Source of the DNA: Azolla caroliniana
Taxonomy: Eukaryota > Plantae > Polypodiophyta
NCBI GenBank assembly: GCA_043228905.1
Contig: JBHGNT010000005.1
Coordinates: 18,600,001 to 18,664,000 of the forward strand
Direction of reading: 5' to 3'
DNA length: 64,000 bases
The notes beneath the pieces are model-generated. The model was not told where the DNA came from. It saw only the letters and a program-made list of their open reading frames with translations, and made no database searches. The translations under genes were made by a program, and so were the position numbers. Positions 1-39,189 of the stretch are shown here, piece after piece (within the stretch, counting starts at the first letter, position 1; the number at the start of each line of letters is the position of its first letter).

Positions 1-1897
1 ACCATGGCATGATGCTTTGATGAGTACACAGAGACCTCAAGATTGGACACAAGGAAACTATAATGGAACTCTCACATATAATTGACCATGAGTAGAAACA
101 TGTGTAACGACACCCTTAGAAGCCAATGATGTTAGTCTCACATTCCTCGATGAGAGTAAAACTTTTGCATGGCTAATGGGTCGATATGACACCCCAAGGG
201 CATGATAATTGATCAATGCTTCACAATATACCATGTTGAGTATCCCCTTACATTTGTAATGCTAGATTGGTCAACCAAGTGGTGGATGATCGCCTATTAG
301 GACAACCTTTCTTTTGCATTAGCCGACTTGTGATAGACTTCAAGAATGATATCCTTTATGTGAGACGAGAGGAGAAGACTCCACATGTGATGGAATTTGG
401 GAAATGAGCTATGATTCCATCATGACGTGGGTGTATATTTTGCAAACGTAGATAGAATGCACCCAATTAGAAGCCAATATTGTGATGAGGATTATTGAAT
501 CCTTGATTGCTTTATGGCAGCCATGTCTTGTGTCAAATGTGAATCTTTAGATGATGGTACATCAAAACCAACATTGGGATATTAGTGTCACCATTGTCTT
601 GTATGAGCATTGGTTATGTCTAAGTTCACCACCTTTAGTAGAATGCAAAGATTAGTTCTTTGGCCTTGATGCGACCATTATATATTGTATATGGTTGCTT
701 GTTTATATTATGACTATTCACACTAGTACGGTTTATGTTGAAGCTCTAATCATGCATGCATGGACCTTTTTAGAGATCATGTAGCCTCAGAGAATATTTC
801 TATGAATCAAGCTAGGGCAAAACATAGTGAAACACTCAATTAAAATATTTATAACCATGAATGATCTTCAACCAAGACTCTTAGTCAGGGTCTTAACCTT
901 AGGCCTAACATTGTAATGGGGCATAAAGGTAATATCTAGAAATCTTTACCTCTTAAGTGTGGAAGGGAAGTACAAGTAGTATTGTTAAGGAGGAATTATA
1001 ATGGTGAAAGGAACATAATGTAATATTCCTACACAAACCTTGTCAAAATCGTGTATTATCAAAGAGAATTGGCATGAATCAAATAAATGTATCACGAAGT
1101 TGAATGCTCAATTAGTATACTTCCAACCATAACTTGTCTTTAGCCATAACCCTTGGTCCGGGCCATAATCTTGGGCCTAACATTGTAATTGGTATAAAAG
1201 GGATATCTCTAAACCTTTAGACCCTCTTAAGTGTGGATGGGACATGGATGTAGTATGGTTAAATAAGAACAAAGCATAAAGGTAAAATGGGTTCTCTAGA
1301 GCTAAAACTTAAAATAACGGTTGTATTACCACATGTGAACTACGGTTCGCACTACTTTTCATACATGTATAAAGGTTGGCTGATACAAAAACAAAATAAC
1401 TAGGTACGTTTTAATCTCTTGGCATTGTGTTAATCTCTCATCAAGATTGTTTCTAAGCATTATAAGACTTAATGAGACCTTTAAAGGTTTAGTTTCATGT
1501 TCAGTTGACCAACAAGTTGAGTGTTAATTCTTACCACTAACAAAATCCTTAAAAAATCACCTTTAAAGTTTCAAACTGAAGATGCCATTTTCCCGATGTA
1601 GGATTAGAAAAAAACATCCAAATATCAAGTTTATCTATTGGTTAATACTTTTCACAAAGATTAGATAGTGCAATAGCTTTTGGTACGTTTATTGAATAGC
1701 ATATTAGCATCGGTTGAATTTATTGTTTTTTATCACTGGTTGGCTCTCTAATAGCACGACACAAAATCTATGGTAGATTGATGACCCTTACTATGTGCGC
1801 GGTATCTTACACTCACCGACTATATATTCTTAGAGGTTACATAGACTAGACGGTCATTTGATGATATTCGACATTCAACCTACACGAATGGATATGT

Positions 1898-4800
1898 CTA
1901 AGCATCTTTATAAAGCTTGGGCTCTTCCAAAAAGGTCCCCCTACTTGTTTCATTCTTGCTAAGGATTGCTTGGTGCCAAAAGGCTGATAATCTTGGGTAT
2001 CTGTTCATGCTCTCATCTAGATAAAAGAGCCCAAATCGAACTTCGAGCCCAAGGAAGAACTCAAAGCCATCGATAAGCGACCAAGCAAAGACGCCTCGGA
2101 CGTCTCCTCCATCTCTGCGAAACATAGCAAATTGTTTTTTTAAAGACTTGCATGAGTGGCATTGTTAATTCAGAAGTGCTTGTTAATTCGGAAGAAACTT
2201 CAGATTGTCAAGAACTCTGCACCTTATGGTTTTGCTAATTGTTGAGTAGTAGGCGTGGAAATATTGGATTCGATCCGTGTCGTTCCTTGCCTCGTCAAAA
2301 CTGGATGTTGTGGAAATTCCCCACCCTACATAAATCTCTTCTCATTCTCTCCCTCCCTCATTCTCTCTCTCTCTCTCTCTCAGATAAGAATCATGGTTGT
2401 CACTTTGGGGTGATTGTCATTTAGTCTTTTGGAGACATTAATAGTACATGTCATTTCTCTCAAAACAAAAGAAGGCATATAACAAGGACAATGAATCGAT
2501 ACCAGTCTCAGTGATGTATATCGGTGGATTATTATACTTAATTTTCATATACTCAACAATCTTCTCTAGACACCATGGTACCGAGTATTCGATGTCACCC
2601 TGCAAGCACCATTGACAAGTGAGTATGATATGCACATACACCGACAATCCAATTTTTACGCGGCAAACTAATGGTTTTACCTCTCCGATTGCCACATCAT
2701 CTCTATATGCTGAAAAAGAGAAGCATCGGGGAAAATTCGTTAATGCAAAGCATGTCAGGAGAAACATAGAATAATTAACTAGCCAAACCTAAATGTTACA
2801 AGCATTTGTGTAACTATACCTTAATGAAGTCAATTAGGCCAAATAAGCCCATAAGCTTCCATACGGTATTATTATATGATATGCAAAAGCATTAAAGCTA
2901 TCGATATTAATATTATGCAGACGATCTCATGACATCTATTAATGTCAATGGTTTACTTGACCTAGGCTTCAAATGTGACCTCCATGGTATGCAAATCAAC
3001 CACTATAACTAATCCCATATTTATCATGACCAAGCTGCAATGTAGAGCTATGGTTGGATATTGAATTTACAAACAGATTGTACAACATCGTTCGCACCTG
3101 TCAAGGAAAATGCCATAACATCTAACTTCCCAATAATCTTACAACTTCGACAGTTGGATGGTGAATGCATACTACTTTTCAAAATTGATCTATTTTGTGA
3201 ATTTACTGCTACCATTTTCACTTGATCTTACAACATCATCTGCACCTGACATGGCAATGCGCATATCCTCGAAGTAGCCATAATCAGTTTCCTGAAGATC
3301 GGTTGCATTGTACACGTAAGTTGCCGTCACAGCATTGATACCTACAAAGTCTAATGATTGACGGAGATATGTTGCTTGCTCATCGGTAAAATCAGGCAAC
3401 CGAGGCCCCAGCATTGTGACCATGGTCTCTGGATATTTCCCAAAAATAAGTGGATCCATGAACCTAATGTCAAAGCACAAGACAAATATGTGTGTCTATT
3501 ATATATCTACGATGAAGTCCAAACAATAAAACACTACTTCAAACTTCTAAGTTGAATTGCTCACCATCCAAAGAAGAAATCTTGTGCTCGATGGGAGGCA
3601 AGTATGTCATCGGTATTTGAGACATTCTGAGGCTCATACCACTTGAACCATAATGCAATGCCAATGTAGCCTCCTTGATCAACCTAATGCCATTACAGAA
3701 CCACCAAATGTTCTATAGATAATCATTTGCAGAGGTATATAGCTCTCCCAATCTCACTGAATTCACTCGTTACTATTACACGCGCATTAAATACATTACT
3801 CAGTAAAGACTTATGAAGTTCTATATCTTATATCAAGAGTACGAACAATCGCAAAATGAAACGTGCAATTAAAGCTTGTAAACAGACCCATGAAAAGTGA
3901 CATTGTGAGATGCTTGCATATAAACTCACCTCAAAAGTTTTATCAAATTCATTGGAAATTGTCTGATAAAGCTACGTGCCAATCTTATAAAATGTTTTTG
4001 TTGCAACCGATGAATCAAACTAAATATTAGTAAAGACAACAGTAGAGATATGACTTTCCACAACTCATTATGAGAGACCACCATATTTGATCCAATGTTC
4101 CATACCATGGATGTTAAACAAAAAGCTTGGCATCTCAGGTTTGGTAGTGGCATCTCAAAGGAAGATTCATAACATTGTTTCTATAAGAGAGCTACAACGA
4201 GCTGTAGATGCTGTTAATAAGAAGAACTAACAAGGAAAAGGATGCATAATAGTGTAGCCAGCCCTTTATATACCAAGTCATCTTAGATCTATTCCCACAC
4301 CATAGACACCCATGACCAAGCAATCATCCACAAGCTAATGGGCCTATATATATATATATATATATATATAACTGACTCTGCTGATCCAAAGTTATGTGTA
4401 CACTCATGACATTCTGCCATGAAAAACTAATCATTTTAAAGAATAATGCTAGATTCATATTTACCTGATATTGAGTTTTATACAGCCTAGCAGCAGCCGC
4501 ATGTGCAAGCAAAACATGATGGCCAACCAAGTAAGGTTCAGTCGAGGAATTTCCTTGTGTACAATTCCCATGCTTAACCAAACCTGGTGTGCATCGTCCC
4601 GGAGGACTTTGTGAGGAGGCATATGCTAAGCTTGCCCAATCATTGGGTTCATCGAAAGTAATCCAGTACTTAACCCTATCCCCAAACTCCGTAAAACAGA
4701 CATTTGCATAGGCAACAAAATCATCTCTGGATACAGAAACAAAAACATCCTTTTAAACATTCAGCTTTAATATGCAGCCTTATTGACTAGTATCATACTA

Positions 4801-6485
4801 ATCGTCTCAAATTACTTACATGAAGAGAGGGCTCAATAAACCACCATATGCATCCTCCAATGCCTGGGGATGATCCTCGGACCAAAGTGTGACATGTGGT
4901 TCTATATCTGAAACGTTAAATCATCCAAAAATAAAGGTTGGAAAGGAATGCACTTGAGATTTCTGGCTTTAAGCATGTACTTGTTGCCAATGAAATCAAG
5001 GATATACCATTTTCTAATAGTAAGTCGATCACGTTGTTGTAATGGGCTATGGCATCAGCATTAGGGGACTCTGAGCCATCTGCATTGATGGAAAACGTAA
5101 AATTAAGGCATATACTGTGCCAAAAGTGCAGTAATTTTTCAGGTTTGTGTGTTTACTTGGAAATATCCGGGTCCATGCAATTGAAAACCGAAAAGCATCC
5201 ATTCCCATTTTGATCACTGCATCAATGTCCTCCTATAGGTAGAAACAAAACATGTTCTAATGAAAATACAGAGACTTGGAAGATTGGATTGACTTGTATG
5301 TAAATTCTTTCTGTAGAAAATGTAGTAGTACCGCATAGCGAATATATTCATCTGCGATATTTCCAGGAACGGTATCATCCATAACTACATCTGTCAATCA
5401 CATATTATCAAAAGTTAGTTGGTGAGATTTTACAAGTACCATAACAATAAGAAATATCCAAATGATGGTTCTGGCAATGGTTAGCATTACTTGAATGATA
5501 ATTGCAAGTATCTTCTAGTATGATGGTTTTCTAATATGGTACTGAGCAATTTCTGGCCTAACTTCATGAGCAAATATGATATAACTCATACCATCTTCCC
5601 GAGCATAGAAATCCCAAATGCTGTCTATTTTTCCATCAGAAGATCCTGCTCCCTCATGCTATAAAGTAGGAGAACAAAAATAATAATAACATAATTCAGC
5701 AAAAAGTGCATATATCTTCTCCATACTAAATCCTGAATCTGTATAATGCTAAATCAGAGTATCCACAAAATAAAATACACTTCGAGTCCAGGAATGTATA
5801 GGCAAAACCATGACCAGAACCATTGGTTCACATAATTGGACATTGTGCTCAGATGAAAAGCTGATGCCGGGAAGCTAACAAGTGTGACACCTGATTCTGC
5901 TGTGCATGTACTATTCATGTGAATATATTGAAGTGTATAATGTGGTATGTATGTGTAGCATGTAAATGTGCTGTTCTGTGGCTACTGTGTTGTGCCATGT
6001 GATTATGTGTGAGTGATGCCTCAAAGGCACAATCTGTGCAATGTGGTGAGTATATTGAAGCTACAATGTTGTGAAATGTGGCTATAACTTAAGTATGTGT
6101 AACACTGCATGCATCTTTCATATGAGATTAGTATCTATGTGGAGATATCGATGTTATTTATGCTTATGCCAACTTTGTGCCTATTGCATTGGCAACATAA
6201 CATGGTTATGCATATTCCAGAGTATATCAATGTGTCTTGATGCTACTATACGCACAATGTGATTACAATTCATGTGTGTGTGTGTGTGTGTTGCTTGAGG
6301 CCACTATGTGTACAATTGGCTATGACCTATGTGTTTGTTTGTATATGCATGTTTGTGTTGTAGCTAATGTAGAGTGATACATCAGAGAATAATTGCATGA
6401 ATGTATATGTCTGATGCAACCATGTGCTGTGTAATGTATGTACATACGTAGGCATGACTGCTGAAATGTATGCACATAAACACGC

Positions 6486-6542
<57 letters not shown>

Positions 6543-6940
6543 TGTTATGTGCATGTGTATGGTACTATGTAGTATACATGTCCATCTGTATGCTTGTTTC
6601 ACCTTGTCACAGTGAGAGAGATCTGAAGATGAAAAAAAGGAGGGAATGTATGTATGGTATGGTATGGTATGATTGATGGCAGAAGTTAACTTACCTTCAC
6701 TGCCATGGTGAGAGCTCCAAAGATGAAACCCGGGGGGAAGGAGCTGCGGTCGATGTATGTATTATTGGGGAAGTAGTCGAAGGGGAGAAGGTAATCAGTG
6801 TCCAAGCTGAGGGGCAAAGCGTGGACATTATTAGGAGGGTAGCCAATGAGCCCAAGAACAGAGAGGAGGAGCAGGATGAGGATGAGGAGGAAGTGGGGAG
6901 AGCTATGGTGATGAAGAGGGATGGGGAGGAAGGTTGCCAT
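1898..6940 (-). CDS. Glycoside hydrolase family 1 (beta-glucosidase-like) gene, 13 exons, 550 aa, probable N-terminal signal peptide
   Basis: Manually spliced GT-AG exons: 6940-6695, 5658-5592, 5390-5332, 5232-5157, 5079-5008, 4907-4820, 4726-4465, 3683-3565, 3463-3246, 2709-2681, 2599-2503, 2325-2223, 2114-1898 (1653 nt, open frame). GH1 motifs: [37 protein letters not shown] (acid/base Glu), IYITETG (nucleophile Glu), [12 protein letters not shown]. Hydrophobic N-terminus [17 protein letters not shown]. The 13-exon layout is typical of plant BGLU genes. Confidence 0.93.
4345..4370. repeat. (TA)n microsatellite, GH1 intron 7
   Basis: Direct reading of the TA run. Confidence 0.9.
6485..6540. 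repeat. (TACA)n/(TA)n microsatellite, GH1 intron 1
   Basis: Direct reading. Confidence 0.9.
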
Positions 6941-7029
6941 AAGCCCAAGAAGGGAGGTAGGCAAGAAGGGAGGTAGGTAATTGGGCTGAATTAAGGTTGG
7001 TTAGTAAATAGCAATTGTATGCATGTAGA

Positions 7030-7133
7030 GGAGGAAGAAGAAGAAGAAGAAGAAGAAGAAGAAGAAACAGAGGAGAGGGAGGGGGGGAAAGGACTGTAAG
7101 GGAAAACCTTAAAATGCCCTCCCTTTTTCTAGT

Positions 7134-7184
<51 letters not shown>

Positions 7185-7564
7185 TGAGGGAGAGAGAGTG
7201 TGTGAGAGTGAGTGTGAGAGAGAGAGTGAGAGTGTGAGAGAATGAGAGGTGTGCGTCACGCCTTGCACGAGCTCCATGGCCGCATACAAAGCGTGGGTAT
7301 ATATATATATATGTATATATACATGTATACATATACGTATGTATGTATGTATGTATGTATGTATGTATGTATGTATGTATATGTAATGTATGGTATATGT
7401 AATGTATGCACTGTGCAGTAGAGAGAGAACGGCAGAGCAATTCATTCCATGTCTATCTATCTCTCGAATCGCCCAAGCTTTTGCTTTTGCTTTTGCAGTG
7501 TATCTCTATCAAGAACCTCGTTGGTCTGAGCGATTGACATTCTTTCTCCCCCAATTCTCATATT

Positions 7565-7635
<71 letters not shown>
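7030..7635. repeat. Microsatellite cluster upstream of the GH1 start: (AGA)n, (AG)n, (TA)n, (TATG)n, (CT)n
   Basis: Runs at ~7034-7065, 7139-7178, 7298-7312, 7338-7382 and 7570-7632. Confidence 0.9.
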
Positions 7636-11569: not shown

Positions 11570-14500
11570 AATGAGACTAGTTACATCGCATTTCGGACTG
11601 ACTACTTAATGTAAGTACCTACAGCTAAAACGGTGCCCTTCAGTGATGGCTAGTACGAGACAACTCTTGGGGTTGGCATCGAAGGGAGGGTGGTAAGTGA
11701 GCCGGAAACAGCCAGCGTGGGGGCTGGTAGTTCCACCTCGGACCACTTCCTCCTTGTGTCACCATGGGCGTGTTCCGCCATTTCTACCAAAAGCGCAAAC
11801 GGGTAGTACCCACGTTAGTGGAATGGCTGCAAACCTCGTCCAATTGCCCTCGTAGGTAGCTAATAAGTGCAAACCATATGTCCATGATCACTTCCTCCAG
11901 GGGCCGCACCAGATCTTGGAAGACCTTTAGGCAACGCGCTTTCCATACATACCACAGGGTGAAGCCTACGATCAACATCCAAATGTCCGGGAACCTAGGG
12001 GATGCGGACTACAAGCCTCTCTCAAATAGAATCTTGGTGATTTTGCCTCTCATGCATACGTAGCACCAACTATCTGCATTGAAGGCATCCATCCACCTAT
12101 CAATGGAGTGGTCAAGCCATGCCGCAACACTCCACGATGCTGTTCCTTTCACTTCACATGCCACAAGGAGGCGAGCCACTCTATCCCATACCTTTTGAGC
12201 GTGAGGGCAAACCCACAGACAATGCCTCAGAGTCTCAATAGGTGAATGGCAAAGCGTTAGGCCGCCACGTTTACCTAGCCATTCGCCAACAGGAACCACA
12301 TTATGACTGATTTGCCACCAAAAAAACTTTATCTTTTCTGGCAAGTGGAGATGCTAGAGACCCTTCCAAAAGGTAATGAGCACCTCATCAAGGATGCCCA
12401 ATGTACGCTAACCATTGCGTAAGGGGTCATCTAGCTGTAGTTGAAAAGTTCGACCTAGTTTAGTGTTGTACTCGAAGAAATGGCGAAATCTGCCATCATG
12501 TTTCCACCTGAAATCCCTTGGGTCCTATTCTAGTTCGACGAGGGGACGACAACCATATACCCATAACTTCCAATGGGGTTCCACCTTAGCAACATCCGGG
12601 TCTGTCTTCCAGATGTTGCCAACCTGCGCCACCACGCGGATTGGGTGCCAAGAGCCCCTACTTTGACTCTCCCCAAAAATCCTATCTCTTCCCGATCCGC
12701 TCACGCCCTTCAACGCCTTAACCCTTCCAGCCGCATCAAAGAGACCGAACCAAGCATCTTCTCTCACCTCCCCCCATCGGAACCCTATCAACTGCCTCAA
12801 CTATCAATCTCCGCATTTTCATGGCTCCCTTGAGGGGAGGGAATGGGACCTCCTAGGCTCCTCCTAAAGCCACCGTGCATCTCCAATCATCTAAAGAGTG
12901 AAGCCCTGTTTGCGCCAGCTTTCCCCATGCTAGGCCCTTAAGCTGGCCTAACATCATGTCGTCACTTGTTCGCACCTGAGGGTTCCAAAATAATGGTTGT
13001 CTAGACCACTCGATTAGTGTCTCCGGCGTGTGCTTGACCAAATGATGTTGTACGTGACACCATGCCCGCAAGATGGAGTTCGTGACCCTCTCCTCCGGAA
13101 GACAAGCCATCTTGGGTGGGACTCCGCTCGTGCAACACCAATTCAAGGAGTTGGGCCAAGGCCTACCATACTTGGGAGTCCTTGCTTGCAACCTATTGCG
13201 AAGTAGAACCTTCCAACACCCCTTACCTGGCAGGAGGCAACGAACCACCATTTTGGCTAGCAATGCTCGACTTTGCATTAAGGGGTCTATGAGGCCAAAC
13301 CCCCCTTTGGCCCGCGGTTGTGTTAACCATGCCATGACACTTTGGCAGAAGCCATCGGGTTGTCCTTACATGACCATATAAACCCCCTGATGGTAGCCTT
13401 AATCGCGTGCAAGCCTGAAGGGTCCATAATCCAGCACGAGACTGAGTGCCACATGATGGTGAGCATCACTTGGTTCGCAATAAGAACCCTACCAGCGAAG
13501 GATAGTTTAGACCTGCTCCATTGGTTCAACTTCTTGCTTAGTTTGCCTTGCACATGGGACAATTGCGCTCCCTTGGGGATTGCCCTCCCCATTGTAAATC
13601 TGAGGTACTTGAATGTCGTCCCATTAGGGACCCATGCAAAATCAACATGGGGATGCCACCTTGGTTTCTCTTGTTCGATGAACCAGAGGCCTTGGGTTTT
13701 ATCCCAATTGATCTTGGCACCAACAGCCTGACAAAAGTCTTCAACAAGATGTTCAACTCACTGCAAATGTGCATCATCGCCCTGCAAGAAAAGGACCGTA
13801 TCGTCGGCATATTCAGATAATAGAAGATCCTCAGTCGCATTGGGGATGGGCAATCCCCTCAGCCGCTGCTTGGTGCTTGTAAGTAGGCTGAGAAAGCCTC
13901 AATTACAAATAGATAGAGATATGGGGCTAGGGGACAACCTTGCCTCACTGAGCGATGTAGTTGGAAGGCGGGGTCCCTAGCACCAGATACCAACACGCTA
14001 TTGGTAGCAGTCCGATAGAGTGCAAAAGTGCAATTCCCTCTCCATTGAGGGGGAAGGCCCATAACTCTCATCACTCTTTCCAAAAAGGGCCATAACACCC
14101 TATCGTAGGCCTTCTCAAAGTCTAACATCAGAATAGTCGAGCTCGATGCGGTGTGATCTGCCAATGCCATAACTTCCCAGAGAAGTAGCACATTATCAAA
14201 GATACACCTACCCCAGATAAACCCTGTTTGATTCTCATGTATGATGTCCGGTAGGAAGCTTGCTATCCGCCTAGCTAGGCCTTTTGCGAGTATCTTGTAT
14301 ATCGTGTTAAGGATCGTGATTGGACGCCATTGGCGTAGCTCGAGGCTTCGCCCTACCGCTTTAGGGATGAGATAGATCATCCCCTCCGCCAGGCCAGTTG
14401 GCATCGCTCTTGAGGACCAAATCTCCTCAATCCTGGCTTCCATTAACGGGATAACGGTTTCCCAATGAATCTCAAAAAAATCTCGTGAGAGATCATCAGG

Positions 14501-16070
14501 GCTGGGGCATGCTCCTCTCCGCAAATCCCTAAGTGCCTCCAAGAGTTCTAATTGAGAAATGGGGCTATCGAGCACAACTTCCATCTCATGGGTGACCTTG
14601 GGGTGAATGCATGCCATCACTCTCTCAGCCAGCTCCGTGTTTTGCCGCATATGCATAGGTGCGAGTAGGTCGTGATAGTATTGTGTTGCCATATGCAGAA
14701 TCTCATCCTTGTCCTTCATTATTGAGCTGTTTGGTTTGCGTAGCCCTTGTATATGTCCACCACCACCCTTGGGTGCCTTGGAGTGAAAGAAATGACGGTT
14801 TACCTTGTCATCTGTTCTAGCCCACCATGTTGCGGCCCTTCGAAATAACATGCAGTTCTTCTCCAACGTCCTTTCCCACAGCTTCAACTTTGCTTCCTCC
14901 AGCTTAGCTCTAGACCAATTGTAGCTAGGGTCTGCTTGTAGCAATCGTTGCGCGGCTGCAACGGACTTCCGTAATTTTGTTTCAATGGCTCTAGCCTGCT
15001 GGAGGCCCAGCTTGGTTTCCTGTTGTAAAAAGGAGGAGGAGAGGGCTAGTTTCTTTTGCAAATCCTCATTGGCCGATTCACTTACAATGATCTCCTACCA
15101 TATGCTCTGCAACCCTGCTTTCACCTTTGCACTCTTCATGATCTTTGTGGGGATTTTCACAATGAGACTCCCCTTGCTACCGCGGGGTGGGTTAAGGTCT
15201 AGCCTCATCGGCTGGTGATCCGAGAAGGTAAGACTTGCCAAGATAGCGAAGGAGCTCCCCAACTCTTCGAGGGATGAGCTGATGTATATGCGGTCTAGGC
15301 GCACAAGACTACCACCCCTAGCATTCATGGCAGCTTGAGAGAAGTGTAGCGAATGTGAGCATCTCCTAAGGGAAGAGCCCCATGTATCCTTCACCCTAAT
15401 TTTCCCAATTAGGAAAGCCCATGAGTTCAACTCCGCACCATGAAGCGGTCTTTGGGTTCCCCCTTTCCTATCTCCCAGATGCTCAGTCATGTTGAAATAT
15501 CCAGCCATTACCCACACCTCTGCATTAGGCAATGTTGTTGCTAACATCCTCCAAAAGATTGCTCTCTCGGGGGAAGAGTTAGGGGCATAAATGTTTAGCA
15601 CCCCAATTTGAAGGCGATTCCACTTCAACAACACATATAAGGCTCTACCCGCCACCAACGTGCCATGTGATGTTACTTCGTAACGGGCTTGATCGCTAAT
15701 CGAGATGCAGACCCCTCCTCTTCGGTGGAGGTCACCCTGTGCAGCCGACCACCACGTGCTCCATCCGCCCAACAAGGGGTTTACTAGGCTCTGAGTTCTC
15801 TCTTGAGAGAGGTAGTATTCCTACAAAAGCAATATGTCAATGTTGCCCCCTATATTAAGGGGATTCAACTCCTCCCAAAGTCTTTTGCACTCACATTGTT
15901 GCCAGCCTCCACCAAGGCCTTGCACATTCCACGTTAGGATCCTCATCTGAAGGCGGTGAGGTTGACGCTCATGTCGGGGCCGACCCCCATGTTAGGGGGC
16001 AAACTATAATGTACTTCTGGGGGTAGGGACTCCATAGTAGATTGGAGAGCCCCTAAGGGATTCCCAGCAT
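11570..16070 (-). mobile_element. Degenerate L1-type LINE ORF2 (endonuclease, RT, zf-RVT) with frameshifts and stops
   Basis: MRILTWNVQG at 15946; APE motifs NIYAPN, RLDRIY, SDH (15095-15775); RT motifs WRPITILN, LDFEKAYDRV, RQGCPLAP (13859-15061), EYADD at ~13801-13814; GGFGL; zf-RVT-like ETLRHCLWVC (12009-12344). Ends are approximate. Confidence 0.9.
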
Positions 16071-26740: not shown

Positions 26741-29700
26741 CGTTTATGCACAAAAACTATTAGGCTTTTGGACCAAATATCTTTAAGACATCATGCACGG
26801 CAATCAACCGACCCGACCAATCCGTCCGATTTGCATCCGTTGTCGTGGAGAAAACCGTCCCTAGGCGGAAACCGGGTATAACGTGTGTAAACCGTCCCTT
26901 ACACATGGGCATGATTTTTGTTGTACAGTACATAGATAGGTACAGCTAAGGTGAAATACTAGGTAGCACGCATTCCTTAGGGAGAAAATCGAGGCATATC
27001 CTTGTCCGAAAGGACAGGGAATAAACATGATGTAATGGATGGTAACGGCCTCCCTCCTTGGGCTATAAAAGAGAGGGAGAGGTATTGTGAAAGGGGATCA
27101 CGTTTTTGTGAAGGACGAAGTGCTGCCGGACTGGAATCGAGCTCTTCTCCTCTGTCTTCTCCATAGTCGTTCTGTGCAGGTTTTCGGGAGGTTGACTCTG
27201 CTCCGTGGAATGCCCGAGTGCTTCCAGTAGAGTCTCCATCTCGCGTTCTGTGCGTGTGCGTGTGTGTGTGCAGGCGTCGGAGCCTATCACTCGCCGGCTT
27301 GCCGGTTGTAACTCCTTGATATATATATATACATATACATTCGTTCTGTCTCCATTGTTCAGAGTCAGTTGCAACTCCTGCGAATTTGTGTGTCTATGCG
27401 CGTGTGAAGTACATCGGTAGTTTCTGTAAAAAGTAACGTGCAGAAGCAAGTATGAAAACCGAATAGAAGGAAGAAAACTCAGGTTTAATGGAGAGCTTGA
27501 GCTTACACAGTATATACAGGAGAGAGAAAACACAAGAACTATCTTTTTTTAAAAGATCTCGATTCACTACCATATACATATGTGTGTTCCATGAACACTT
27601 TTATACAAGTCTTCGAAGGACTGAGCGAAGTACTGACCGTACTTCAATGCTCTTTAAGAGCTCCTACGCTAACTCCCAAATATATTCCTCACGTAATATC
27701 TTTCCTAACGGCCTCCCGGTTTACGCACTCGGCCTAACCGATCGGTCCCAACCGATCCGGTCCTCGGCTTCTTCAGCCGATTCGGTCAATGTTGAGCTTG
27801 TCTCTCAACACTCCCCCTCAAGCTCAACTCGAGGCTCTTCGGGATCCTTGGGCTCACAGCTCCGGTTCCTCCTGGCTTCACGCCTCGCTCGCGCTCCTCG
27901 ACCTGTTCGACTCCACGCGCTTCGACCCTTCCGGTCGGCTTGTCTGCTCATGCGGCCCTTATTAGCTCTTCTGCTGTTGTGGTGTTGACGCTTCTCTTGC
28001 TGCCTTTTCTTCCGCTTGGGCCTCGATTGATTCAGCGTATCTGAATCAAACATCCGAACCGACTCGGCTACCTCCGATCGGTTTTCGCTCCCGTCCGAGT
28101 TGGCTGTCTCCAGCTCGTCTTCGGTCTTCTCGCCCTTGGTGGCGTCATCTTCACCATGCGTGGTTGGCTTCGGCTCTCTCCTTCGGCTGCTCCCCTTCTG
28201 TCCGCTTTCGGATTTTTCCGCGGGTCCGCCCTTGGCTTCTTCAGCCGATCCGAAGTCGAACTCGACAACTGAGTCAACAACCGAGTCAACCGACTTGGTG
28301 TCGCAGCCTCCGCTCCTTTCCTGCTGCTTTGCTTGGTCGTTCGGGACTGTTCTCCCCCTCAAGTTTGGCATGTCGAGGTGACGCAATCCGAGCGCACCGA
28401 AGAATTGCCGCAACTTGTCCAGACCAAGGGGCTTAGTGAAGATGTCGGCAGTCTGCCGATCCGTCAGAACGCACTGAAGTTCGACTTCACCGGAAAGGGC
28501 ATGCTCACAGACGAAATGGTAGTGCACCTCAATGTGCTTGGTCCGTGCGTGGAAAATGGGATTTTTCGCGAGCTGGATGCTGCTGAGGTTGTCGCAGTAG
28601 ATCGTCGTCGGATCTGACACCTCCTCTTGCAGGTCCTTAAGTAGCCGCTTCAACCATATGGCTTCGCATGTCGCGACAGCCGCTCCTCGGTACTCAGCTT
28701 CGGTGCTTGATAGTGCAACCGTCGGCTGCTTCTTACTGCTCCACGCGATCACGGCACTCCCGAGGGAGAACGCGTATCCGGACGTGGATCGGCGATCGGT
28801 GGCGTTGCCAGCCCAATTAGCATCAGTGTAGCCGACTAACTGCGCGGCTGCACCGGTCCGATATAGCAGTCCCCGGTCCTTAGTGCCGTTGACATACCGA
28901 AGTATGCGTTGCGCACACTGAAGGTGCTCCTCGGTAGGTCGCGCCATGAACTGACTAATCACTCCGACCGGATAACTGAGGTTGGGTCGGGTGATGGTCA
29001 AGTATATGAGGCTTCCGACAATTTGTCGGAACCTCGTCGGGTCGCATACCGTTCCCGTATCGGGACGAAGCTTGACGGTTCTGTCCAGAGGAGTCGAGAC
29101 TGACTTATAGTCGGCCATCCCGAATTTGAAGAGCATACTTAGCACGTAGTGACGTTGGCTGATCAATATGCCTTCGGGGGTACGGATCACTTCGATCCCA
29201 AGGAAGTAATGAAGGTCCCCCAGATCCTTCATGTCAAACGATGCCGCAAGTTGGAGCTTCACGCGGTCGATTTCACGTAGGTCGGCGCCGGTGATGACCA
29301 AGTCATCAACATATAGTAAAATACTAACCGGTCTGAGTCGACCTTTCCGGATGAACAGGGAAGAGTCCGATTTTGACGTGACGAAGCCCATCCAATGCAG
29401 TTGTTGCGTGATCTTCGCGTTCCAGACACGCGGGGCTTGCTTTAGTCCGTAAAGGGACTTCTTCAGTCGGCATACTGCCGAGGAGTTCGTTCCAGAATGA
29501 AATCCAGGGGGCTGTACCATGTACACCTGTTCCTCAAGGTCACCTTGAAGGAATGCATTCTTTACATCCATCTGATGTAAGTGCCACCCCTTCACCGCAG
29601 CTATTGCGAGCAAAACACGGACGATCGTCATTTTCACGACTGGCGCAAACGTCTCATCGTAGTCGATGCCGTGTTTTTGCGCGTAGCCCTTTGCCATTAG

Positions 29701-31504
29701 CCGAGCCTTGTACCGGTTGACCGAGCCATCGGTGTTGTACTTGACCTTGTACACCCACCTACACCCGATCGGTTTTACCCCTCTTGGTGCGTCAACCACC
29801 TAGGTCTCGTTCTCCGCCAATGCGTGCATCTCTTCCTCCATCGCGGCACGCCAATTCGCATCTTTAGCCGCTTTTGCGTAGCTCTCCGGCTCACGCACTT
29901 CCGCTACACGAGTCATGTACGCATAATGATGCGCCATGTACTCGTTGTATCCGAACCGCAAGACAGGATTCTTCTGGCGGGTAGATCGGCGTAATCTCAC
30001 ATTAGCCGATGTCGAGGCCTTCTTGGTCGACGCGGTCTTCACCTTTAAAGACCCGTCACCGGTTCCCTCGGAGTCGGACTCGCGTTGGTCTGACTCGTTC
30101 CTATCTGTGCCGGAATCCGACACCTTCTTCTTCCCTTTCTCTTTGCGTGTAAGCCGTCTCCTCGGCTTCCTGCGCGGGGAATGCACGATCGAGTCTCCAC
30201 TACTCGCCAGCTCTTCATCGGACTGGTCGTACCGACTCAATCGTCCAATCGGTCCACTTAAACGGAGTGAAATCGGACTCTCTTCGCGGGCCTCGATTTC
30301 GGGCTCATCTGGAGGCATCTCGGCCTTGCTGACCTCATCGTCAGAGCTCGGATTGGAGTCGGGGTTCGGAGTCGGGGGCTGGTACCAGGACGCGGACTCG
30401 TCAAACACAACGTCACGGCTAACACGCGCTTGTTTGGTGCGAGGGTTATAACACTTATAACCCTTCTGCTCGTCCGAGTAACCGACCAAGATGCATTTCT
30501 CGGCCTTTGCGTCCAACTTCCTCATTTTCTCCTTCGATACATGCACATACGCAATGCTACTGAACACCCTCAAGTGTCGCAAGTTCGGCTTCGTTCCGAA
30601 ATACAGCTCGTGCGCCGACACTTTGTCTCCGATCCGGTTCTGGATGTATACCGCAGTCCTTACTGCCTCGGCCCAGTAGAACTTGGGCAAGCTCTTCTCC
30701 TCCAACATTGCCCGTGCCGCTTCCACAACTGACCAATTCTTCCTCTCGGCCATGCCGTTCTGCTCTGGCGTGTATCTACAACTGAATTCGCACCGAATTC
30801 CCATTTGTTGTAGATAACCGTTGAATTGACCAGAAAAGTACTCTTTCCCGCGATCCGACCGCAGGCACTTGATCTTTCGTCCCGTTTCCGTTTCCACGAA
30901 CCCTTTGAGGTCCCGGAAACAGTCGAAGACTTCGGTCTTCCTCTCAATGAGGTAGATCCACGTGTGCCGCTGTCGTGCCTTTCGGCTCCGGATCGTTGCG
31001 TGAGTCGGGTGGGAACCGCCGAGGTTTTGGACTAGGAGGAAGAGGAATACAACTTAAGGCTAGCTATGAATAGTAGAAAGAGAAGTAAGATAGCAATCTC
31101 GTGAATCCCACGAGTTTAGTGTATTTAAAACAATATTTAGATTATAAGAGTAATTTAGATGGCAAAATTCGTGAATCCCATGAATATATTAGATTGATCA
31201 ATCCTTGTATATTAATCAACAACCTTATACATATTTCTCTCCTCCTTATATAAAGATGGAAGAGGCTAAGCATGGCTTCATGCCTTTTTCACCAAAAGTG
31301 TCCATGCACACTAAATGTGCATGTGATGCTTTGTCATTTCCTAAATATAGGGCTCATGCATGCTAGATGTGCATGAGTCACTTTTAATGTCACGTGTAAA
31401 TAAAATATTCACACCTTAAAGAATACATGATTTTTACCTTTTAATAAAGGTATGTGTAAATAAAGGTCTTATACGTATTAAATCTATATGTATAACACTA
31501 AAGA

Positions 31505-33574: not shown

Positions 33575-35701
33575 ATGAGGGGGTCGGATCTCGCAGAGGC
33601 CATGGCTTCGGCCGTGGTTCGGATTGTAAACGCGCGCGAGAGCACCGGTGCCCTCGACAGAGCTATTGAGGCGGTCGTCGGCACGATCGGCCGGTTCGAT
33701 GGCAAGGATGCCACGAAGTATTTGGCGTCCTACGGTGCAGAGATGCTGATGCGGGACATTCCGGAAGAAAGGCGTCTTGCCGGATTTCCCCGAGTAGCGA
33801 TGCCGAGCATCCATGCGGAGGTGCTCGAGGTGCGGACGGAGAGCCGTACCTGGGAGGAGTTCGAAGGTCGGCTCCTAGAGAAATACGGGCTGGACGACGC
33901 GCTCCGGCTTTCGAAGCGAAGGTTCATGGAATGGGTGGAGTCCCCGGGGAAGGGAAGAAACGCGTCGGCGCTCCTCCGGGAGTTCGAGGAAAACTTTGCG
34001 CGCCTTTCGGCGCTTGACCGAACCATCCTGGACACGAGCCGGGTCTTGCTGTTTGTCAAGTCGGTCGACGAGCGGGATCGGGAGCAAGTGGGCTTCTTGC
34101 TGGAAACCGAAGACGGGCTCACTACCGACTGGGCGGCTGTCAGGAAGGTCTGTGGCCGTTTCGACAAACGGCGAGAATGGGCGGATAACGGGGCGGCCGG
34201 GTCGGGCTCGGTCGCAGCAAGGAAGCTCGAACCAGCGCCACAGGTGCGCAAGGAAGAGACCCGGGAGTGGTTGGAAACCGGTTCGGCTTCGACCGGCGTA
34301 GTCAGAGGCTCAACCGGAGGAGAGGCGCTGGAGGAATTGACGAAGGCGATAAAGGACCTCCAAATCGCGCAGGCCCGAAGGGAAGGAGGCGAACCGGCTC
34401 GTGACCGACGGCCGGCGGCAGGAAACAGGTGCATGTGGTGCGATGAGGTCGGCCACATTCGGAAGGACTGCGGCGACTTCGCGGAGGCGCTGAGGAACAG
34501 GGTGGTGTACCTGTGGGAAGGACGGGTGCATGCCAGCGACACCCGAAGGGCCCTGAGCCGAAACGACGGAAAAGGCGGTATGAAAAGGGTGATGGAAGAG
34601 GCGGCGGCCCGACACGCGGAAACCGTCCACTACTCGGCGTCGGCCGGCATTCGAGTCGGGGGCGGCGAGGCCCGGAGGGAAAGCAAAGCCGGATTCTGGC
34701 CGACGGTGCTGGAAGGCCTTGCCGATGCGAGGATGAAGAGGGAGGAATCGGACCGTGCGGAGAAACGGGTACGGGAGATGACCGGGTGGAGCGACCCGGT
34801 CGAGGAAAGGACGGGCTTCGTGGAAGCTGCTTGCCAGAACTACGAGGCTCTGGTAGAAGAGAAGCGGGTGGGGAGACCCGGGACGACCGGGCCCTCACAA
34901 CGATACGAGACCCGGTCCGGGCCACGACGGGACGAAGCCGGCGGGGCCGGTACGCAAGATAAACCCCAGAAGGGCGGGTACCGTCTGGGGACGGAGATAG
35001 AAAGGACCACGGACTTACGAAAGGTCCTGGAGGAACGGATCCTCGACAGCAAGGTGGAGCTGTCGTTACGAGAGGTGCTGGGAATCGCCAAGAAGGAGTT
35101 CCACGACTCCATCATGGACTTGGTGAAACGGAAGAGGCTGTCGACGGAGACAGAACCGGAAAGACCGGTGGAAGTGCGGACGACGCACCTAGACGACATG
35201 GCGCTGGGAGACGAGTGGGCGGAAAGCCACTATTCGAGACCACACTGGGCCCGAGCGACCACGGAAACCCCGGTGAAGATCGGCGATGTCCGGGAACCGG
35301 TGATAGCTTTGGTGGACCACGGATCGGAGATCAATTTGATGTCCATGGACTTCTATAAGAAGGGCAAATGGCCGATCAACACCAAGCACGGGTGGAAAAT
35401 AAGGGCAGCCACGCGCGCCACTGAGGAACTGCACGGGGCCTGTCCGAATGTGCGGGTCAAGATTGGCGACGTCGAGATTGACCAGCACTTCTTCGTGCAG
35501 GAGACGTCTTCGCATCCGGTCATTCTGGGAGAACCGTACATTACGGCGGCGCGGATGGAGACCAAAGTGTTGGACAATGGTTCGGCCTACGCGAGGGTCA
35601 AAAGCCAAGACGGGCGCCATTCGGTCCAGTTTCTGACGGTAAGGCCGAACCACGAACGTAACCGCGATTCCCTCGGTTCCGAAACCCGAGAGGATTTTTA
35701 G
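33575..35701 (+). CDS. gag: Gag-protease polyprotein of element C
   Basis: First in-frame ATG at 33575; zinc knuckle CMWCDEVGHIRKDC; aspartic-protease-like ALVDHGSEIN...VILGEPY. Confidence 0.9.
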   Translation: MRGSDLAEAMASAVVRIVNARESTGALDRAIEAVVGTIGRFDGKDATKYLASYGAEMLMRDIPEERRLAGFPRVAMPSIHAEVLEVRTESRTWEEFEGRLLEKYGLDDALRLSKRRFMEWVESPGKGRNASALLREFEENFARLSALDRTILDTSRVLLFVKSVDERDREQVGFLLETEDGLTTDWAAVRKVCGRFDKRREWADNGAAGSGSVAARKLEPAPQVRKEETREWLETGSASTGVVRGSTGGEALEELTKAIKDLQIAQARREGGEPARDRRPAAGNRCMWCDEVGHIRKDCGDFAEALRNRVVYLWEGRVHASDTRRALSRNDGKGGMKRVMEEAAARHAETVHYSASAGIRVGGGEARRESKAGFWPTVLEGLADARMKREESDRAEKRVREMTGWSDPVEERTGFVEAACQNYEALVEEKRVGRPGTTGPSQRYETRSGPRRDEAGGAGTQDKPQKGGYRLGTEIERTTDLRKVLEERILDSKVELSLREVLGIAKKEFHDSIMDLVKRKRLSTETEPERPVEVRTTHLDDMALGDEWAESHYSRPHWARATTETPVKIGDVREPVIALVDHGSEINLMSMDFYKKGKWPINTKHGWKIRAATRATEELHGACPNVRVKIGDVEIDQHFFVQETSSHPVILGEPYITAARMETKVLDNGSAYARVKSQDGRHSVQFLTVRPNHERNRDSLGSETREDF

Positions 35702-38700
35702 AGAGGACTGCCAAGGCGTGGGGCCGCGACAGTCCGGACACCCCGGGAAAACCCCACACCTGTACGATAAAACCGAAGAAACCTTGTACCATAGGTAGGG
35801 AATTTTTGTTCTCCGACAGCGGAGCGTGTACGATAGTCGGCATCGGCGGCCGAGAGAAGAGAAAGGCGGAGGGGAGACTTCGAGCGTGCGGAGTTCTCGG
35901 CCCTGACGAGGAAATCAACGGAGCCGTGGAGGCGGTCTCATTCGACGACACCTTGGGAATGCTGGGAAAGGTAGTCGAAGAAGGCCTTAACGAAGACCGG
36001 ACGATACCGGTGTGTTCCGAGGAGATGTACGAAGCCATCGCGGACTTCGGTCGAGGGCTCGAGTCAGTTCGGACGGCCCACGTAAGCACCAAGTACAAGA
36101 CTGTGGACCGGAAGGTAAGGCCAGTCGCGGCACCCTTACCGGAGGACAGCGCGTCGAGAATCAAAGGGGTTGCATCGGACCCTAGTCTACGAGATCCGGC
36201 CTGCATAGGACACACCTTCACCGACGAGACGCTCCGACAGCTCACAATCGGTGGGGGCGGGTTCCTACTGCCGGCGGAGGAAGACCGGTTTCAGAGAATG
36301 CTCGGAAGGCACGGGAAAGCCTTCGCATTCTCGCCGGAGGAAATCGGGTGCGTTAACCCGACGATCGTGGAGCCGATGGTGATATTCACGGTACCGCATG
36401 TACCATGGAATCTCAAGCCAATCCCGGTTCCGAGAGCTCACATCCCGAAGTTGATGGAGCTGCTGAGGCAGAAAGTTGATATGGGAATTCTCGAGCCGTC
36501 GAGCGCCCCGTATTCGAATCGATGGTTTACCGTACCGAAGAAAAACGGTTCGTTGCGCTTCATCCAGGACCTGCAGCCGGTCAATCGAGTGACGATTCGG
36601 AACGCAGGGATCGGACCGACCATAGACGAGTTCGCGGAGGCCTTCGCCGGAAGGTCAATTTACTCGGTCGGGGATCTATACTCAGGGTACGACCAGTTCC
36701 AGCTAGCCGTGGAGAGCAGAGACATTACGACGATGCGAACTCCCCTCGGCCTAGTTCGGATGTGTACACTGCCGCAAGGAGGGACCAACTCGGTGGCCCA
36801 CATGGTGAATGCGATGAACAAGGTTCTGAGGGACTGTATCCCGGACATCACCATGCCGTTTCTGGACGACATCCCGATCAAGGGATGCCCGGTGGAAGAA
36901 AAGGACGAGACGATCGGCCCGGACGGATGCCGGCGATTCGTGGTAACGCACATCGACGACTGCGAGAAGGTGCTGCAAAGGTTAGAGGATGCGAGACTCA
37001 CCTTCTCCGGGGAGAAGTCGGCCTTCGGGCAGTCAGAAATCATGGTGGTCGGACACCTGTGCGGACCATATGGCCGGAAGCCGTCTCCGGCAAAGGTAGA
37101 AGCCATCTCCGCGATGAAGCCCGACTGCAGCTCGGTCACGGAAGTACGGAGATTTCTGGGGGCATGCGCGTTCTACCACATATGGATCCCGCATTACGCA
37201 CACGTCGCGGAGCCACTGTACGGGTTGCTGAAAAGGGGGCGAAGGTTCGAATGGCTAGGCGAGCACGCGGAATCGGTCCGGAAGCTGAAAGAGGCTCTTG
37301 CAGCGGCACCGGCACTTCGGAAGGCGGTATACGGGAAGGGTACCCCGGTATTCATAACGGTGGATACCAGTCCGACCGGGATCGGATGGGTCGTGAACCA
37401 GGAAGACGAGGACGGCAATCGGTTTCCGATCCGATTCGGCGCGAAAGTCCTCAGTGAACGGCAGCGAGGATACGCCCAGGTTAAACGCGAACTCTGGGGT
37501 ATTGTTTCGGCGGTTAAGGCCGACAAAGACTACCTGATAGGGACAGAAGTGATCATCGAGACGGATTGCCTGCCGATTCTCGGTATGGTTTCCGGATGCG
37601 CGACTCCGGACCTGGCGATGCTCAGGTGGATAGCGTACATCAAGTCCCTGGACCCGGAAATACGACACATTTCCGGGAAAGACAACGCCATGGCCGACAT
37701 GCTTTCGAGAGCGAGGTTCGACGACGAGGGCGGCATGGTTTCGGAAGACGAAGAAGTCGGCGTGGATTTCTTCGAGGCGGCATACATGACGACCGACGGG
37801 ATGAGCACTCCGGCGCTTAACGAGTTCGACGCGAGCAAGTACGACGGGGAGTGGCTGCAGATCGGCGGGTTTTTGAAGACAATGACGCCTGATGCGTCAT
37901 GGACGAAGGACGAGGCCAACCGGATCCGGAAGAAAGCATATCGATTCCTTCTCCGAGATGGGCATTTGTGGAAGCACCCGAAGAAGAGGAACGGCGTCCC
38001 GCTCCGGGTGGTGGCGATGAAGGAAGAACAGGAGGAGCTACTGGCGGCCTACCACGGCAGCCCTTGGGCTGGACACCGTGGAACGTGGGCGACATTTGAG
38101 AAGCTGAAGGGGAAGTACTGGTGGCCGGGATTGTACCGGGACGTGCATCGGTTCGTGTCAACTTGCGAGAGTTGTCAGATGCACTCGATAGTCCGACACC
38201 GGGACGGGCTTCGCCCTACGTACCCTCCGACTATCCACTTCAAATGGATGGTAGATCTAGTGACGATGCCGATGGGGGTAGGACAGATGCGGTATCTGGT
38301 CCTAGCGCGGGAAGACCTGACGAACCAGGTGGAAGGCCGAGCCCTTCAGAATAAGACGACCGCGGCCGTGTGTCGGTTCCTGATCGAGGACGTGATATGC
38401 CGGTACGGGTGCGTCGGGAAGATCGTGGCTGACCGAGGGGAGTTGGACACCGAGGAAGCCGCGGAGCTGTTTGATCGGCTGGGAGTCAAACTCTCGCTCA
38501 CCAGTGCGTACAACCCGGAGGCGAATGGAAAGGTGGAGCGCGGACACGGGCCGATCGTTAAAGCGCTGGTTCGGGCATGCGGGGGCCAAATCGGTAACTG
38601 GCCGCGACTTCTACCTTATGCTTTGTGGGCCGACCGGACTACGCACAGTTCGGTAACCGGGTACATGCCGACGGAGCTCATGTTCGGCCAGAAGCCGATC

Positions 38701-39189
38701 ATGCCAATGGAACGGATGATCCCCTCATGGGCAACGGTCGATTGGAGGGACGAGATGAGCCGGGAGGAGTTGTTGGCCGCGCGTATACGACAACTCGAGC
38801 GGAGACCGGAGGACGTGGAACTGGCTACGGAGAGGCTCCGGGCGGCGAGGGCAAAGAACAAAGCCAGGTTCGACCGAACGCACCGGCTCCGACCGAAGAA
38901 AATCGAAGAAGGTGACTGGGTGCTCGTCTACGACAGCAGCCTCGACAACCAGCACCGAGCCGCACGGAAGTTCGCACGTAGGTGGTTCGGGCCTTACGTG
39001 GTACGGAGCGCCAACGACAACGGGACGTATCATCTGGCGGAACTCGACGGTACGAGAATAGCGATACCCGTGGCCGGGAAGAGGATCAAAGCTTTCAAGA
39101 AGCGGCACGACGACGAACCCGACCCGATTCTCCTGGACAGCAGCGACGACCGATCCGAGGCCGAGGAAGGGCCGGTAGGCGAAGAGTAA
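35692..39189 (+). CDS. pol: RT-RNase H-integrase ORF of element C, in the -1 frame relative to gag-PR
   Basis: Frame is open from the G GAT TTT heptamer at 35692; RT LPQGGTNS/PFLDD, RH VDTSPTGIG, IN H..H..CESC with D,D,E residues, WFGPY; no chromodomain seen. Confidence 0.92.
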   Translation, partial: GFLERTAKAWGRDSPDTPGKPHTCTIKPKKPCTIGREFLFSDSGACTIVGIGGREKRKAEGRLRACGVLGPDEEINGAVEAVSFDDTLGMLGKVVEEGLNEDRTIPVCSEEMYEAIADFGRGLESVRTAHVSTKYKTVDRKVRPVAAPLPEDSASRIKGVASDPSLRDPACIGHTFTDETLRQLTIGGGGFLLPAEEDRFQRMLGRHGKAFAFSPEEIGCVNPTIVEPMVIFTVPHVPWNLKPIPVPRAHIPKLMELLRQKVDMGILEPSSAPYSNRWFTVPKKNGSLRFIQDLQPVNRVTIRNAGIGPTIDEFAEAFAGRSIYSVGDLYSGYDQFQLAVESRDITTMRTPLGLVRMCTLPQGGTNSVAHMVNAMNKVLRDCIPDITMPFLDDIPIKGCPVEEKDETIGPDGCRRFVVTHIDDCEKVLQRLEDARLTFSGEKSAFGQSEIMVVGHLCGPYGRKPSPAKVEAISAMKPDCSSVTEVRRFLGACAFYHIWIPHYAHVAEPLYGLLKRGRRFEWLGEHAESVRKLKEALAAAPALRKAVYGKGTPVFITVDTSPTGIGWVVNQEDEDGNRFPIRFGAKVLSERQRGYAQVKRELWGIVSAVKADKDYLIGTEVIIETDCLPILGMVSGCATPDLAMLRWIAYIKSLDPEIRHISGKDNAMADMLSRARFDDEGGMVSEDEEVGVDFFEAAYMTTDGMSTPALNEFDASKYDGEWLQIGGFLKTMTPDASWTKDEANRIRKKAYRFLLRDGHLWKHPKKRNGVPLRVVAMKEEQEELLAAYHGSPWAGHRGTWATFEKLKGKYWWPGLYRDVHRFVSTCESCQMHSIVRHRDGLRPTYPPTIHFKWMVDLVTMPMGVGQMRYLVLAREDLTNQVEGRALQNKTTAAVCRFLIEDVICRYGCVGKIVADRGELDTEEAAELFDRLGVKLSLTSAYNPEANGKVERGHGPIVKALVRACGGQIGNWPRLLPYALWADRTTHSSVTGYMPTELMFGQKPIMPMERMIPSWATVDWRDEMSREELLAARIRQLERRPEDVELATERLRAARAKNKARFDRTHRLRPKKIEEGDWVLVYDSSLDNQHRAARKFARRWFGPYVVRSANDNGTYHLAELDGTRIAIPVAGKRIKAFKKRHDDEPDPILLDSSDDRSEAEEGPVGEE

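Follow-up and report, generated by a model that had tools for sequence, protein, structure and literature searches.

Catalysis in glycoside hydrolase family 1 (GH1) depends, in the textbook account, on a pair of glutamates and on an unvarying group of residues that bind glucose. We describe here a GH1 gene on the minus strand of a 64,000-nucleotide stretch of the genome of the fern Azolla caroliniana (GenBank assembly GCA_043228905.1, contig JBHGNT010000005.1, positions 18,600,001 to 18,664,000; the whole stretch is called the window, and positions are counted from its first letter). It belongs to a GH1 subfamily of ferns that has apparently not been described before and in which, judging from sequence comparison, the active site has been rebuilt and the nucleophile seems to be dispensable.

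Several described systems offer points of comparison. In the rice GH1s, the nucleophile is kept in all members and the acid/base is replaced in two, and a pattern of 13 exons and 12 introns is regarded as ancestral for plant GH1 (PMC1781453). The residues of GH1 enzymes that bind the glycone or support the nucleophile have been assigned (PMC12595480, PMC8571087). Soybean hydroxyisourate hydrolase, a plant GH1 without the glucose-binding residues, hydrolyses a bond in a purine ring (PMC1781453). In the archaeal exo-beta-glucosaminidase GlmA, a member of family GH35 in clan GH-A, Asp-Glu replaces Asn-Glu at beta4, the Asp binds the C2 amine of glucosamine and the D178N variant is inactive (PMC6566704). 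In GH20, an Asp-Glu pair works without an enzyme nucleophile, the acetamido group of the substrate attacks, and Lys or Arg is in contact with O3/O4 (PMC11308363, PMC6429369). In some other GH1-fold domains, such as Klotho KL1 and domain 1 of Aplysia 8IN1, the catalytic pair is incomplete.

A GH1 gene with a remodelled pocket

Sequence, fold and gene structure all assign the window gene to GH1. It does not belong to GH35 or GH20, and the comparisons with those families concern only how the protein might work. Three of five exon pieces matched Pfam PF00232 (Glyco_hydro_1) above the curated cut-off, and the gene has the 13-exon, 12-intron organisation of plant GH1. Read from 6940 down to 1898, the joined exons comprise 1653 nt and encode 550 amino acids followed by a stop codon, with GT-AG borders at all 12 introns, which bears out the open spliced frame and canonical splice sites reported in a preliminary description of the locus. 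That description had also proposed to verify the splicing, and all 12 exon joints were found in contigs of four of four sequencing runs, from four studies. One contig of 1869 letters has no mismatch across all eight of its listed pieces, and most joints also occur in three further runs with sequences 80-95% alike. The runs are not on record as RNA and are only presumed to be RNA, and the splice evidence consists of the contigs' own exon joints. An AlphaFold2 model of an orthologue, P0005, has a mean predicted local distance difference test score of 87.7 and the normal GH1 (beta/alpha)8 barrel. It superposes on rice Os3BGlu6 with a TM score of 0.95 and a root-mean-square deviation of 1.5-1.6, and matches Os7BGlu26 with a Z score of 54.7; across Os3BGlu6 (3GNO), Os3BGlu7 (2RGL) and Os4BGlu12, the TM scores are 0.95-0.96 and the identities of P0005 42-44%.

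Seven exons of a near orthologue lie on a metagenome contig, L093, and their splice sites are intact. In a comparison of 294 codons with the window gene, the nonsynonymous rate (dN) is 0.039 and the synonymous rate (dS) 0.129, giving a dN/dS of 0.30 (Fisher p 1e-4); among the covered pocket residues only S183A differs, and T442A lies next to the nucleophile. Orthologues of other ferns are 61-75% identical to the window protein and have the same residues. In related runs 10 of 16 coding differences are synonymous against 22% expected (from 40 of 317 difference rows), while four of the six coding differences in the four runs with all joints are nonsynonymous, which points the other way. The gene is thus real, transcribed, spliced and conserved, and the selection acting on it is purifying, although not extreme. 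The preliminary description had argued that so many coordinated changes were not random decay, and splicing, a dN/dS not near 1 and substitutions common to the fern relatives rather than private all sustain it on this point.

For the pocket, P0005 was aligned to Os3BGlu6, with positions hand-counted from the alignment; the numbering of Q31, H132, N177, E178, E394, E451 and W452 agrees with PMC8571087. Both catalytic glutamates of a canonical beta-glucosidase are present, the acid/base on beta4 (E178, here E229) and the nucleophile on beta7 (E394, here E443). Also kept are E451 (E497), W444 (Trp490), Arg139, Asn373 and Phe506. On the other hand, seven conserved GH1 residues are listed for Os3BGlu6, and four of them, all binding the glycone, are changed together (Q31 to K82, H132 to S183, N177 to D228 and W452 to F498), along with the Tyr that is hydrogen-bonded to the nucleophile (Y321 to V375). 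Further changes are W133 to E184, N395 to T444, D249 to W302 and M251 to K304. A loop Trp, which we take to be the aglycone-stacking residue of the rice enzymes, is lost as well. The assignment of pocket residues to individual sugar hydroxyls used here is likewise our working assumption. The motifs TMAVKHEG, TLWSED, TFDEP, NAVT, ITETG and DGFEF, from which the remodelling was first recognised, are all present in the spliced translation. Since the glycone-binding residues and the Tyr are replaced, the window gene is not classed as a canonical beta-glucosidase.

Secretion of the product is likely, as the preliminary description had suggested, given an N-terminal hydrophobic stretch at residues 17-33 and eight sequons. 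Most full-length members of the fern clade have such a stretch, and their sequons are more numerous (mean 7.2 versus 4.2).

Members and residues of the fern subfamily

Searching the genome with exon 7, we found 17 places: the window gene, seven loci with the same remodelled motifs, six canonical GH1 loci and three with stop codons. Fourteen of the GH1 loci detected look intact, and eight of these are of the remodelled subfamily; no further GH1 copy was found within the 64-kb window. Database searches returned 40 related proteins, 33 of them named and all from leptosporangiate ferns (Ceratopteris richardii 9, Adiantum nelumboides 13, A. capillus-veneris 6 and Pteridium aquilinum 5), with seven unnamed; several are labelled 'Beta-glucosidase' in UniRef. 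The window gene belongs, by its sequence, to a GH1 subfamily that was found here only in ferns and that has a rebuilt, conserved pocket; the preliminary description, which treated the gene singly, missed this subfamily of 40 database proteins and eight genes of this genome. The subfamily is multi-copy in every fern sampled. We found no description of it in the open-access papers searched; articles behind subscriptions, or the supplementary material of fern genome studies, may mention the genes.

Trees were built with FastTree from the 40 database proteins, the window gene and six of its seven paralogues (omitting L023, which nearly duplicates L022). The 47 rows of the remodelled clade are monophyletic with a Shimodaira-Hasegawa support of 100, against 41 other rows picked from the hits. 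They fall into subclades A (14 rows, including the window gene), B (22), C (9) and D (2). Subclades A, B and C are old, because each contains genes of this genome and of Pteridaceae/Pteridium. Their branching order has supports of 81-86 in one tree and is open in another, and the trees likewise leave the sister group of the clade open. The lycophyte, gymnosperm and angiosperm hits, with the best of Selaginella, Diphasiastrum and the gymnosperms among them, are canonical. A profile search gave no new clade member among the 120 matches listed, and none of 145 new 50%-cluster representatives has the clade motif set, five matches to a loose pattern being Klotho-like or other proteins. Only one of 80 metagenome loci (L093) belongs to the clade, and a search of the ESM Atlas gave nothing beyond generic GH1 clusters and is uninformative. 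The age of the clade is a lower bound, because horsetails and marattioid and osmundaceous ferns are not among the named hits.

Residues were counted in the 40 relatives and in 111 canonical GH1s, with smaller denominators where coverage is partial. The acid/base motif Asp/Glu-Glu-x-Asn-Asp is present in all 40 relatives: Glu229 and Asn231 are invariant, Asp/Glu228 occurs in 40/40 against 0/111 canonical proteins, and Asp232 likewise in 40/40 against 0/111. Lys82 is found in 37/37 relatives and in one of 111 canonical proteins. Conversely, the canonical His (Ser183 in the window protein) and Tyr (Val375) are each absent from all 40 relatives and present in 109 of the 111. Other fixed positions are Gly495 and Glu497 (38/38 each), Trp490 (39/39) and Trp302, Lys/Arg304 and Asp/Glu416 (39/39 each), followed by Asn373, which anchors the acid/base (39/40), and Arg139 (R in 37/40). 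Of 451 columns, 19 were counted as pocket positions. Half of the ten canonical residues that the clade as a whole has lost fall within these 19 (hypergeometric p 2e-5), as do three of the nine new invariant residues (p 0.005); the 19-position list is a working list that includes positions that had drawn attention, and these p-values are partly circular. With that reservation, the changes appear to cluster in the pocket beyond chance.

The nucleophile position behaves quite differently. Of the 40 relatives, 12 have Glu there, 22 have Gln and six have Ala, against Glu in 108 of 111 canonical proteins, so the fern clade shows the reverse of the rice pattern, keeping the acid/base and, in most members, losing the nucleophile. 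Among the eight genes of this genome, Glu occurs only in the window gene; the paralogues L018-L021 (on C19, on C4 and as a tandem pair on C2) and L022-L024 (on C21), whose key motifs are free of stops, have Gln (four) or Ser (three). Subclade A is marked by Glu184 and Glu443; the latter, which may have been either retained or regained, is present in 12 of its 13 relatives and in the near orthologue L093. Subclade B has Gln184 and Gln443 (18/18) and also a changed Phe at subsite -1, and subclades C and D have Glu at the old His site (9/9). The preliminary statement that both catalytic glutamates are intact is correct for the window gene, but the nucleophile is replaced in 28 of 40 relatives and in seven of the eight genes of this genome, and the statement applies to one subclade only.

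Individual members depart from these patterns. In subclade A, P0078 (Adiantum nelumboides L7F22_006517) has Gln at the nucleophile position, an independent loss, whereas P0077, on a contig of equal length, keeps Glu; in subclade C, P0080 and P0081 have Glu-Glu in place of Asp-Glu at the acid/base site. Three clade-type copies in this genome contain stop codons (L014 at C4:21012373, and L016 and L017 on C21), and an extra match to the last exon lies at C21:8615446, near the C21 cluster. These remnants are the product of local birth and decay of clade copies.

Possible functions of the rebuilt pocket

We tentatively favour the reading that the subfamily consists of glycosidases for beta-linked amino sugars, with a retaining mechanism through Glu443 in subclade A and substrate assistance in subclades B-D. 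The pocket is asymmetric: Glu497 at O4/O6, the stacking Trp490, the acid/base Glu229 and the Asn373 that anchors it all remain, but the residues facing O2/O3 and supporting the nucleophile are replaced clade-wide, and this pattern points to a pyranose altered at C2 or C3. The amino-sugar reading is preferred because the GlmA and GH20 precedents fit a nitrogen at C2. Like GlmA, the window protein has Asp directly before the acid/base Glu (D228-E229) and a beta7 nucleophile (E443). The adjacent Asp-Glu pair (D/E-E in 40/40) and the basic residue at O3/O4 (Lys in 37/37) correspond by alignment position to GH20, and 28 relatives and seven other genes of this genome share with GH20 the absence of an enzyme nucleophile, unlike the window gene. 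The likeness to GH20 would be convergent, because the fern proteins are GH1 by sequence. The isoelectric point (pI) of the protein core is 4.3-4.7 in all 41 clade proteins, whereas 127 canonical proteins have a median of 6.07, and acidic pocket residues average 5.1-6.8 per subclade against 3.8; an acidic pocket and a low core pI suit a cationic ligand.

In this scheme, the substrates would be glucosamine or N-acetylglucosamine ends, as in fragments of chitosan or chitin, in place of glucose. Asp228, beside the acid/base, would bind the C2 nitrogen and Lys82 would bind O3/O4. In subclade A, Glu443 would still be the nucleophile, acting on glucosamine ends as in GlmA. In subclades B, C and D (Gln, Ala or Ser), the N-acetyl group of the substrate would take over as nucleophile, as in GH20, occupying the space vacated by the loss of His, Tyr and Glu. 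Together, the subclades may trim partly acetylated chitin, and candidate roles involve chitin of fungi or insects, or amino-sugar glycans of the plant itself. It is rather doubtful that a GH1 beta-glucosidase gave rise to an amino-sugar family converged on the GH20 layout, most members having lost the clan GH-A beta7 nucleophile and the window's subclade having kept it. If true, this would be a natural mechanism switch inside one plant gene family.

A number of observations weigh against this reading. The Asp-Glu motif is not diagnostic, since it also occurs in GH1s with no known amino-sugar link. Six plant-type GH1 transcripts from metagenomes (L040, L041, L044, L051, L055 and L058), grouped with cluster-6 enzymes, have T-x-D-E at the acid/base and are otherwise canonical, with Gln, Tyr, Glu and Asn all kept as far as the sequences reach, and the Asp arose in them separately; the rice GH1 consensus allows Asp before the acid/base (PMC1781453); and non-catalytic Klotho-type domains also carry Asp and D-G-F. 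An N-acetyl group is expected to clash with the GlmA Asp, which counts against the GH20-like step, and GlmA retains a Trp that hydrogen-bonds its nucleophile (PMC6566704), where the window protein has, by alignment, Val at the GH1 Tyr site. Nucleophile-free relatives of GlmA are not mentioned in the accessible part of the same paper. The pocket also holds 1.9-2.1 basic residues against 0.5 in canonical proteins, which is awkward for a cation, and the pI contrast shrinks within this genome (4.2-4.85 in seven partial clade sequences, 4.67-7.89 at six canonical loci). The aromatic cage of GH20 (as in Trichuris HEX-2 and Stackebrandtia SnHex) is matched in part at most: by alignment only, the candidates are the invariant W302 and W490 and W/Y/F446 in 37 of 40, and the beta6 Tyr is lost. 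Moreover, the genome has a GH20 hexosaminidase locus of its own (G000:C10:20231127-20234435), above the Pfam cut-off. A wide fold search with the P0005 model gave GH1 and other clan GH-A barrels, and no GH20, among its top 50, which is not evidence against a common mechanism.

A possible though doubtful alternative is that these proteins are non-catalytic binding proteins, either pseudoenzymes or lectins, whose conserved pocket binds a small ligand, glycan or peptide, with Glu443 a binding residue or a relic. The absence of the nucleophile from most members agrees with this, as does the loss of Tyr in 40/40, a change that cripples GH1 hydrolysis (PMC12595480, PMC4803828). The change of Asn to Asp and the D-G-F of the last motif (DN to DG) recur in Klotho KL1 and Aplysia 8IN1 domain 1. 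However, in the Klotho-type domains examined the acid/base Glu is replaced, whereas all 40 fern relatives retain it and most also retain the anchoring Asn (39/40) and Arg139 (37/40), and the fern clade has invariant residues of its own. The window gene has lost neither catalytic residue and subclades B-D only the nucleophile, and the presence of Glu443 in most of subclade A and in the near orthologue also counts against this reading.

We consider it unlikely that the proteins are retaining transglycosidases, or glycosidases for another modified sugar (a uronate, sulfate or O-methyl at O2/O3), whose anionic group Lys82 would bind. The replacement of Gln by Lys and of His by a small residue would open room for a charged group at O3, but the surrounding pocket is strongly acidic. 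Double displacement requires the nucleophile that most members have lost, and the fern clade was not placed in what we take to be the Os9BGlu31-like cluster of acyl-glucose transglucosidases (link support 22). Nevertheless, the engineered changes W120C, N163A, Y284F and F401S raise GH1 transglycosylation (PMC4803828), and the whole fern clade differs at the first three of these positions, which are the Trp that follows the His, the Asn that precedes the acid/base, and the Tyr; at the fourth, the Phe of subsite -1, only subclade B is changed.

Distinctly unlikely is a different reaction on a non-sugar substrate, for which soybean hydroxyisourate hydrolase gives a precedent and for which Lys82, Asp232 and Trp302, all newly invariant, might provide new chemistry. 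The soybean enzyme has the nucleophile motif HENG, where the window gene has TETG, and falls in another cluster, and the fern clade keeps the pyranose-binding Glu497 and Trp490. Thiaminase I of ferns, one candidate whose gene was not found in the literature searched, is a very remote prospect. Thiaminases use a Cys nucleophile, and Cys422 is present in only 27 of 40 relatives. Thiaminase activity was reported in only two of 12 ferns (PMC3968017), yet each of the ferns sampled has several copies of the clade.

That the gene encodes an ordinary, if divergent, beta-glucosidase is improbable: the two glutamates, the other retained residues, the canonical fold and the 13-exon pattern would allow it, but the joint change of Q, H, N, W and Tyr speaks against it. 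Decay of a dispensable copy is hardly credible, because, although the gene adjoins a long run of retroelement remnants and exon differences in run X7 (5.5%) are not far below intron differences (7.2%), splicing, the dN/dS, the excess of synonymous differences and the similarity of the orthologues speak against it, and the common invariant residues already refute it.

The options named in the preliminary description (another substrate, another reaction or a binding protein) are ranked here and not settled by sequence. Whether the subfamily holds enzymes with a new mechanism, natural synthases or binding proteins, it is a biochemical innovation of ferns, in which more than half of the intact-looking GH1 loci of one genome (8/14) have fixed a different residue set and tolerate loss of the nucleophile. 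Orthologues are present in the model fern Ceratopteris.

Gene features and surrounding sequence

The coordinates are collected in Table 1.

Table 1. Exons and transcribed flanks of the window GH1 gene, and retroelement remnants in the window.
Feature	Coordinates	Strand	Remarks
Exon 1	6695..6940	-	Start codon, hydrophobic leader (residues 17-33), beta1; last codon Lys82 (6697-6695), in place of the O3/O4-binding Gln
Exon 2	5592..5658	-	Carries His83-Glu84 of K-H-E-G
Exon 3	5332..5390	-	
Exon 4	5157..5232	-	Conserved Arg139
Exon 5	5008..5079	-	
Exon 6	4820..4907	-	TLWSED; His to Ser183 (4881-4879), Trp to Glu184
Exon 7	4465..4726	-	Asp228 (4653-4651), acid/base Glu229 (4650-4648), clade-invariant Asp232 (4641-4639); PF00232 match, E 1e-17
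Exon 8	3565..3683	-	Clade-invariant Trp302 (3650-3648), Lys/Arg304
Exon 9	3246..3463	-	Asn373 retained; Tyr to Val375 (3330-3328)
Exon 10	2681..2709	-	29 nt
Exon 11	2503..2599	-	Glu/Asp416, nucleophile position Glu443 (2509-2507), Asn to Thr444
Exon 12	2223..2325	-	
Exon 13	1898..2114	-	Stacking Trp490 and O4/O6 Glu497 retained; Asn to Gly495, Trp to Phe498; stop codon
Transcribed 5' leader	6941..7021	-	Covered by contigs of 4/4 runs (listed pieces reach 7021)
Transcribed 3' untranslated region	1700..1897	-	Contigs of 3 runs reach or pass 1700, the end of the compared stretch
LINE-type reverse transcriptase	13859-15094		Retroelement remnant
Copia-type	27805-31053 and 45087-46862		Retroelement remnants
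Gypsy-type pol	35662-39189, further copies		Retroelement remnants

Some runs contain more than one form of the gene. At 3246-3353, runs X3 and X8 have a second contig with four differences, three of them nonsynonymous (Y391D, L386I and T384S), and a second form of the joint between exons 10 and 11 is present in runs X1, X3 and X8; these samples thus hold a second allele or a homoeologue. A contig of run X7 links exon 2 with exon 4 across 5233-5592; the intervening letters are not known, and exon 3 is either skipped or too divergent to align. Microsatellites (GA, TA, GAA and GTAT) lie at 2341-2375, 4345-4370, 6486-6537 and 7034-7632, in introns and upstream of the start codon. Nested retroelement remnants lie in the window between 12853 and 64000, and the long frames scanned there belong to them.

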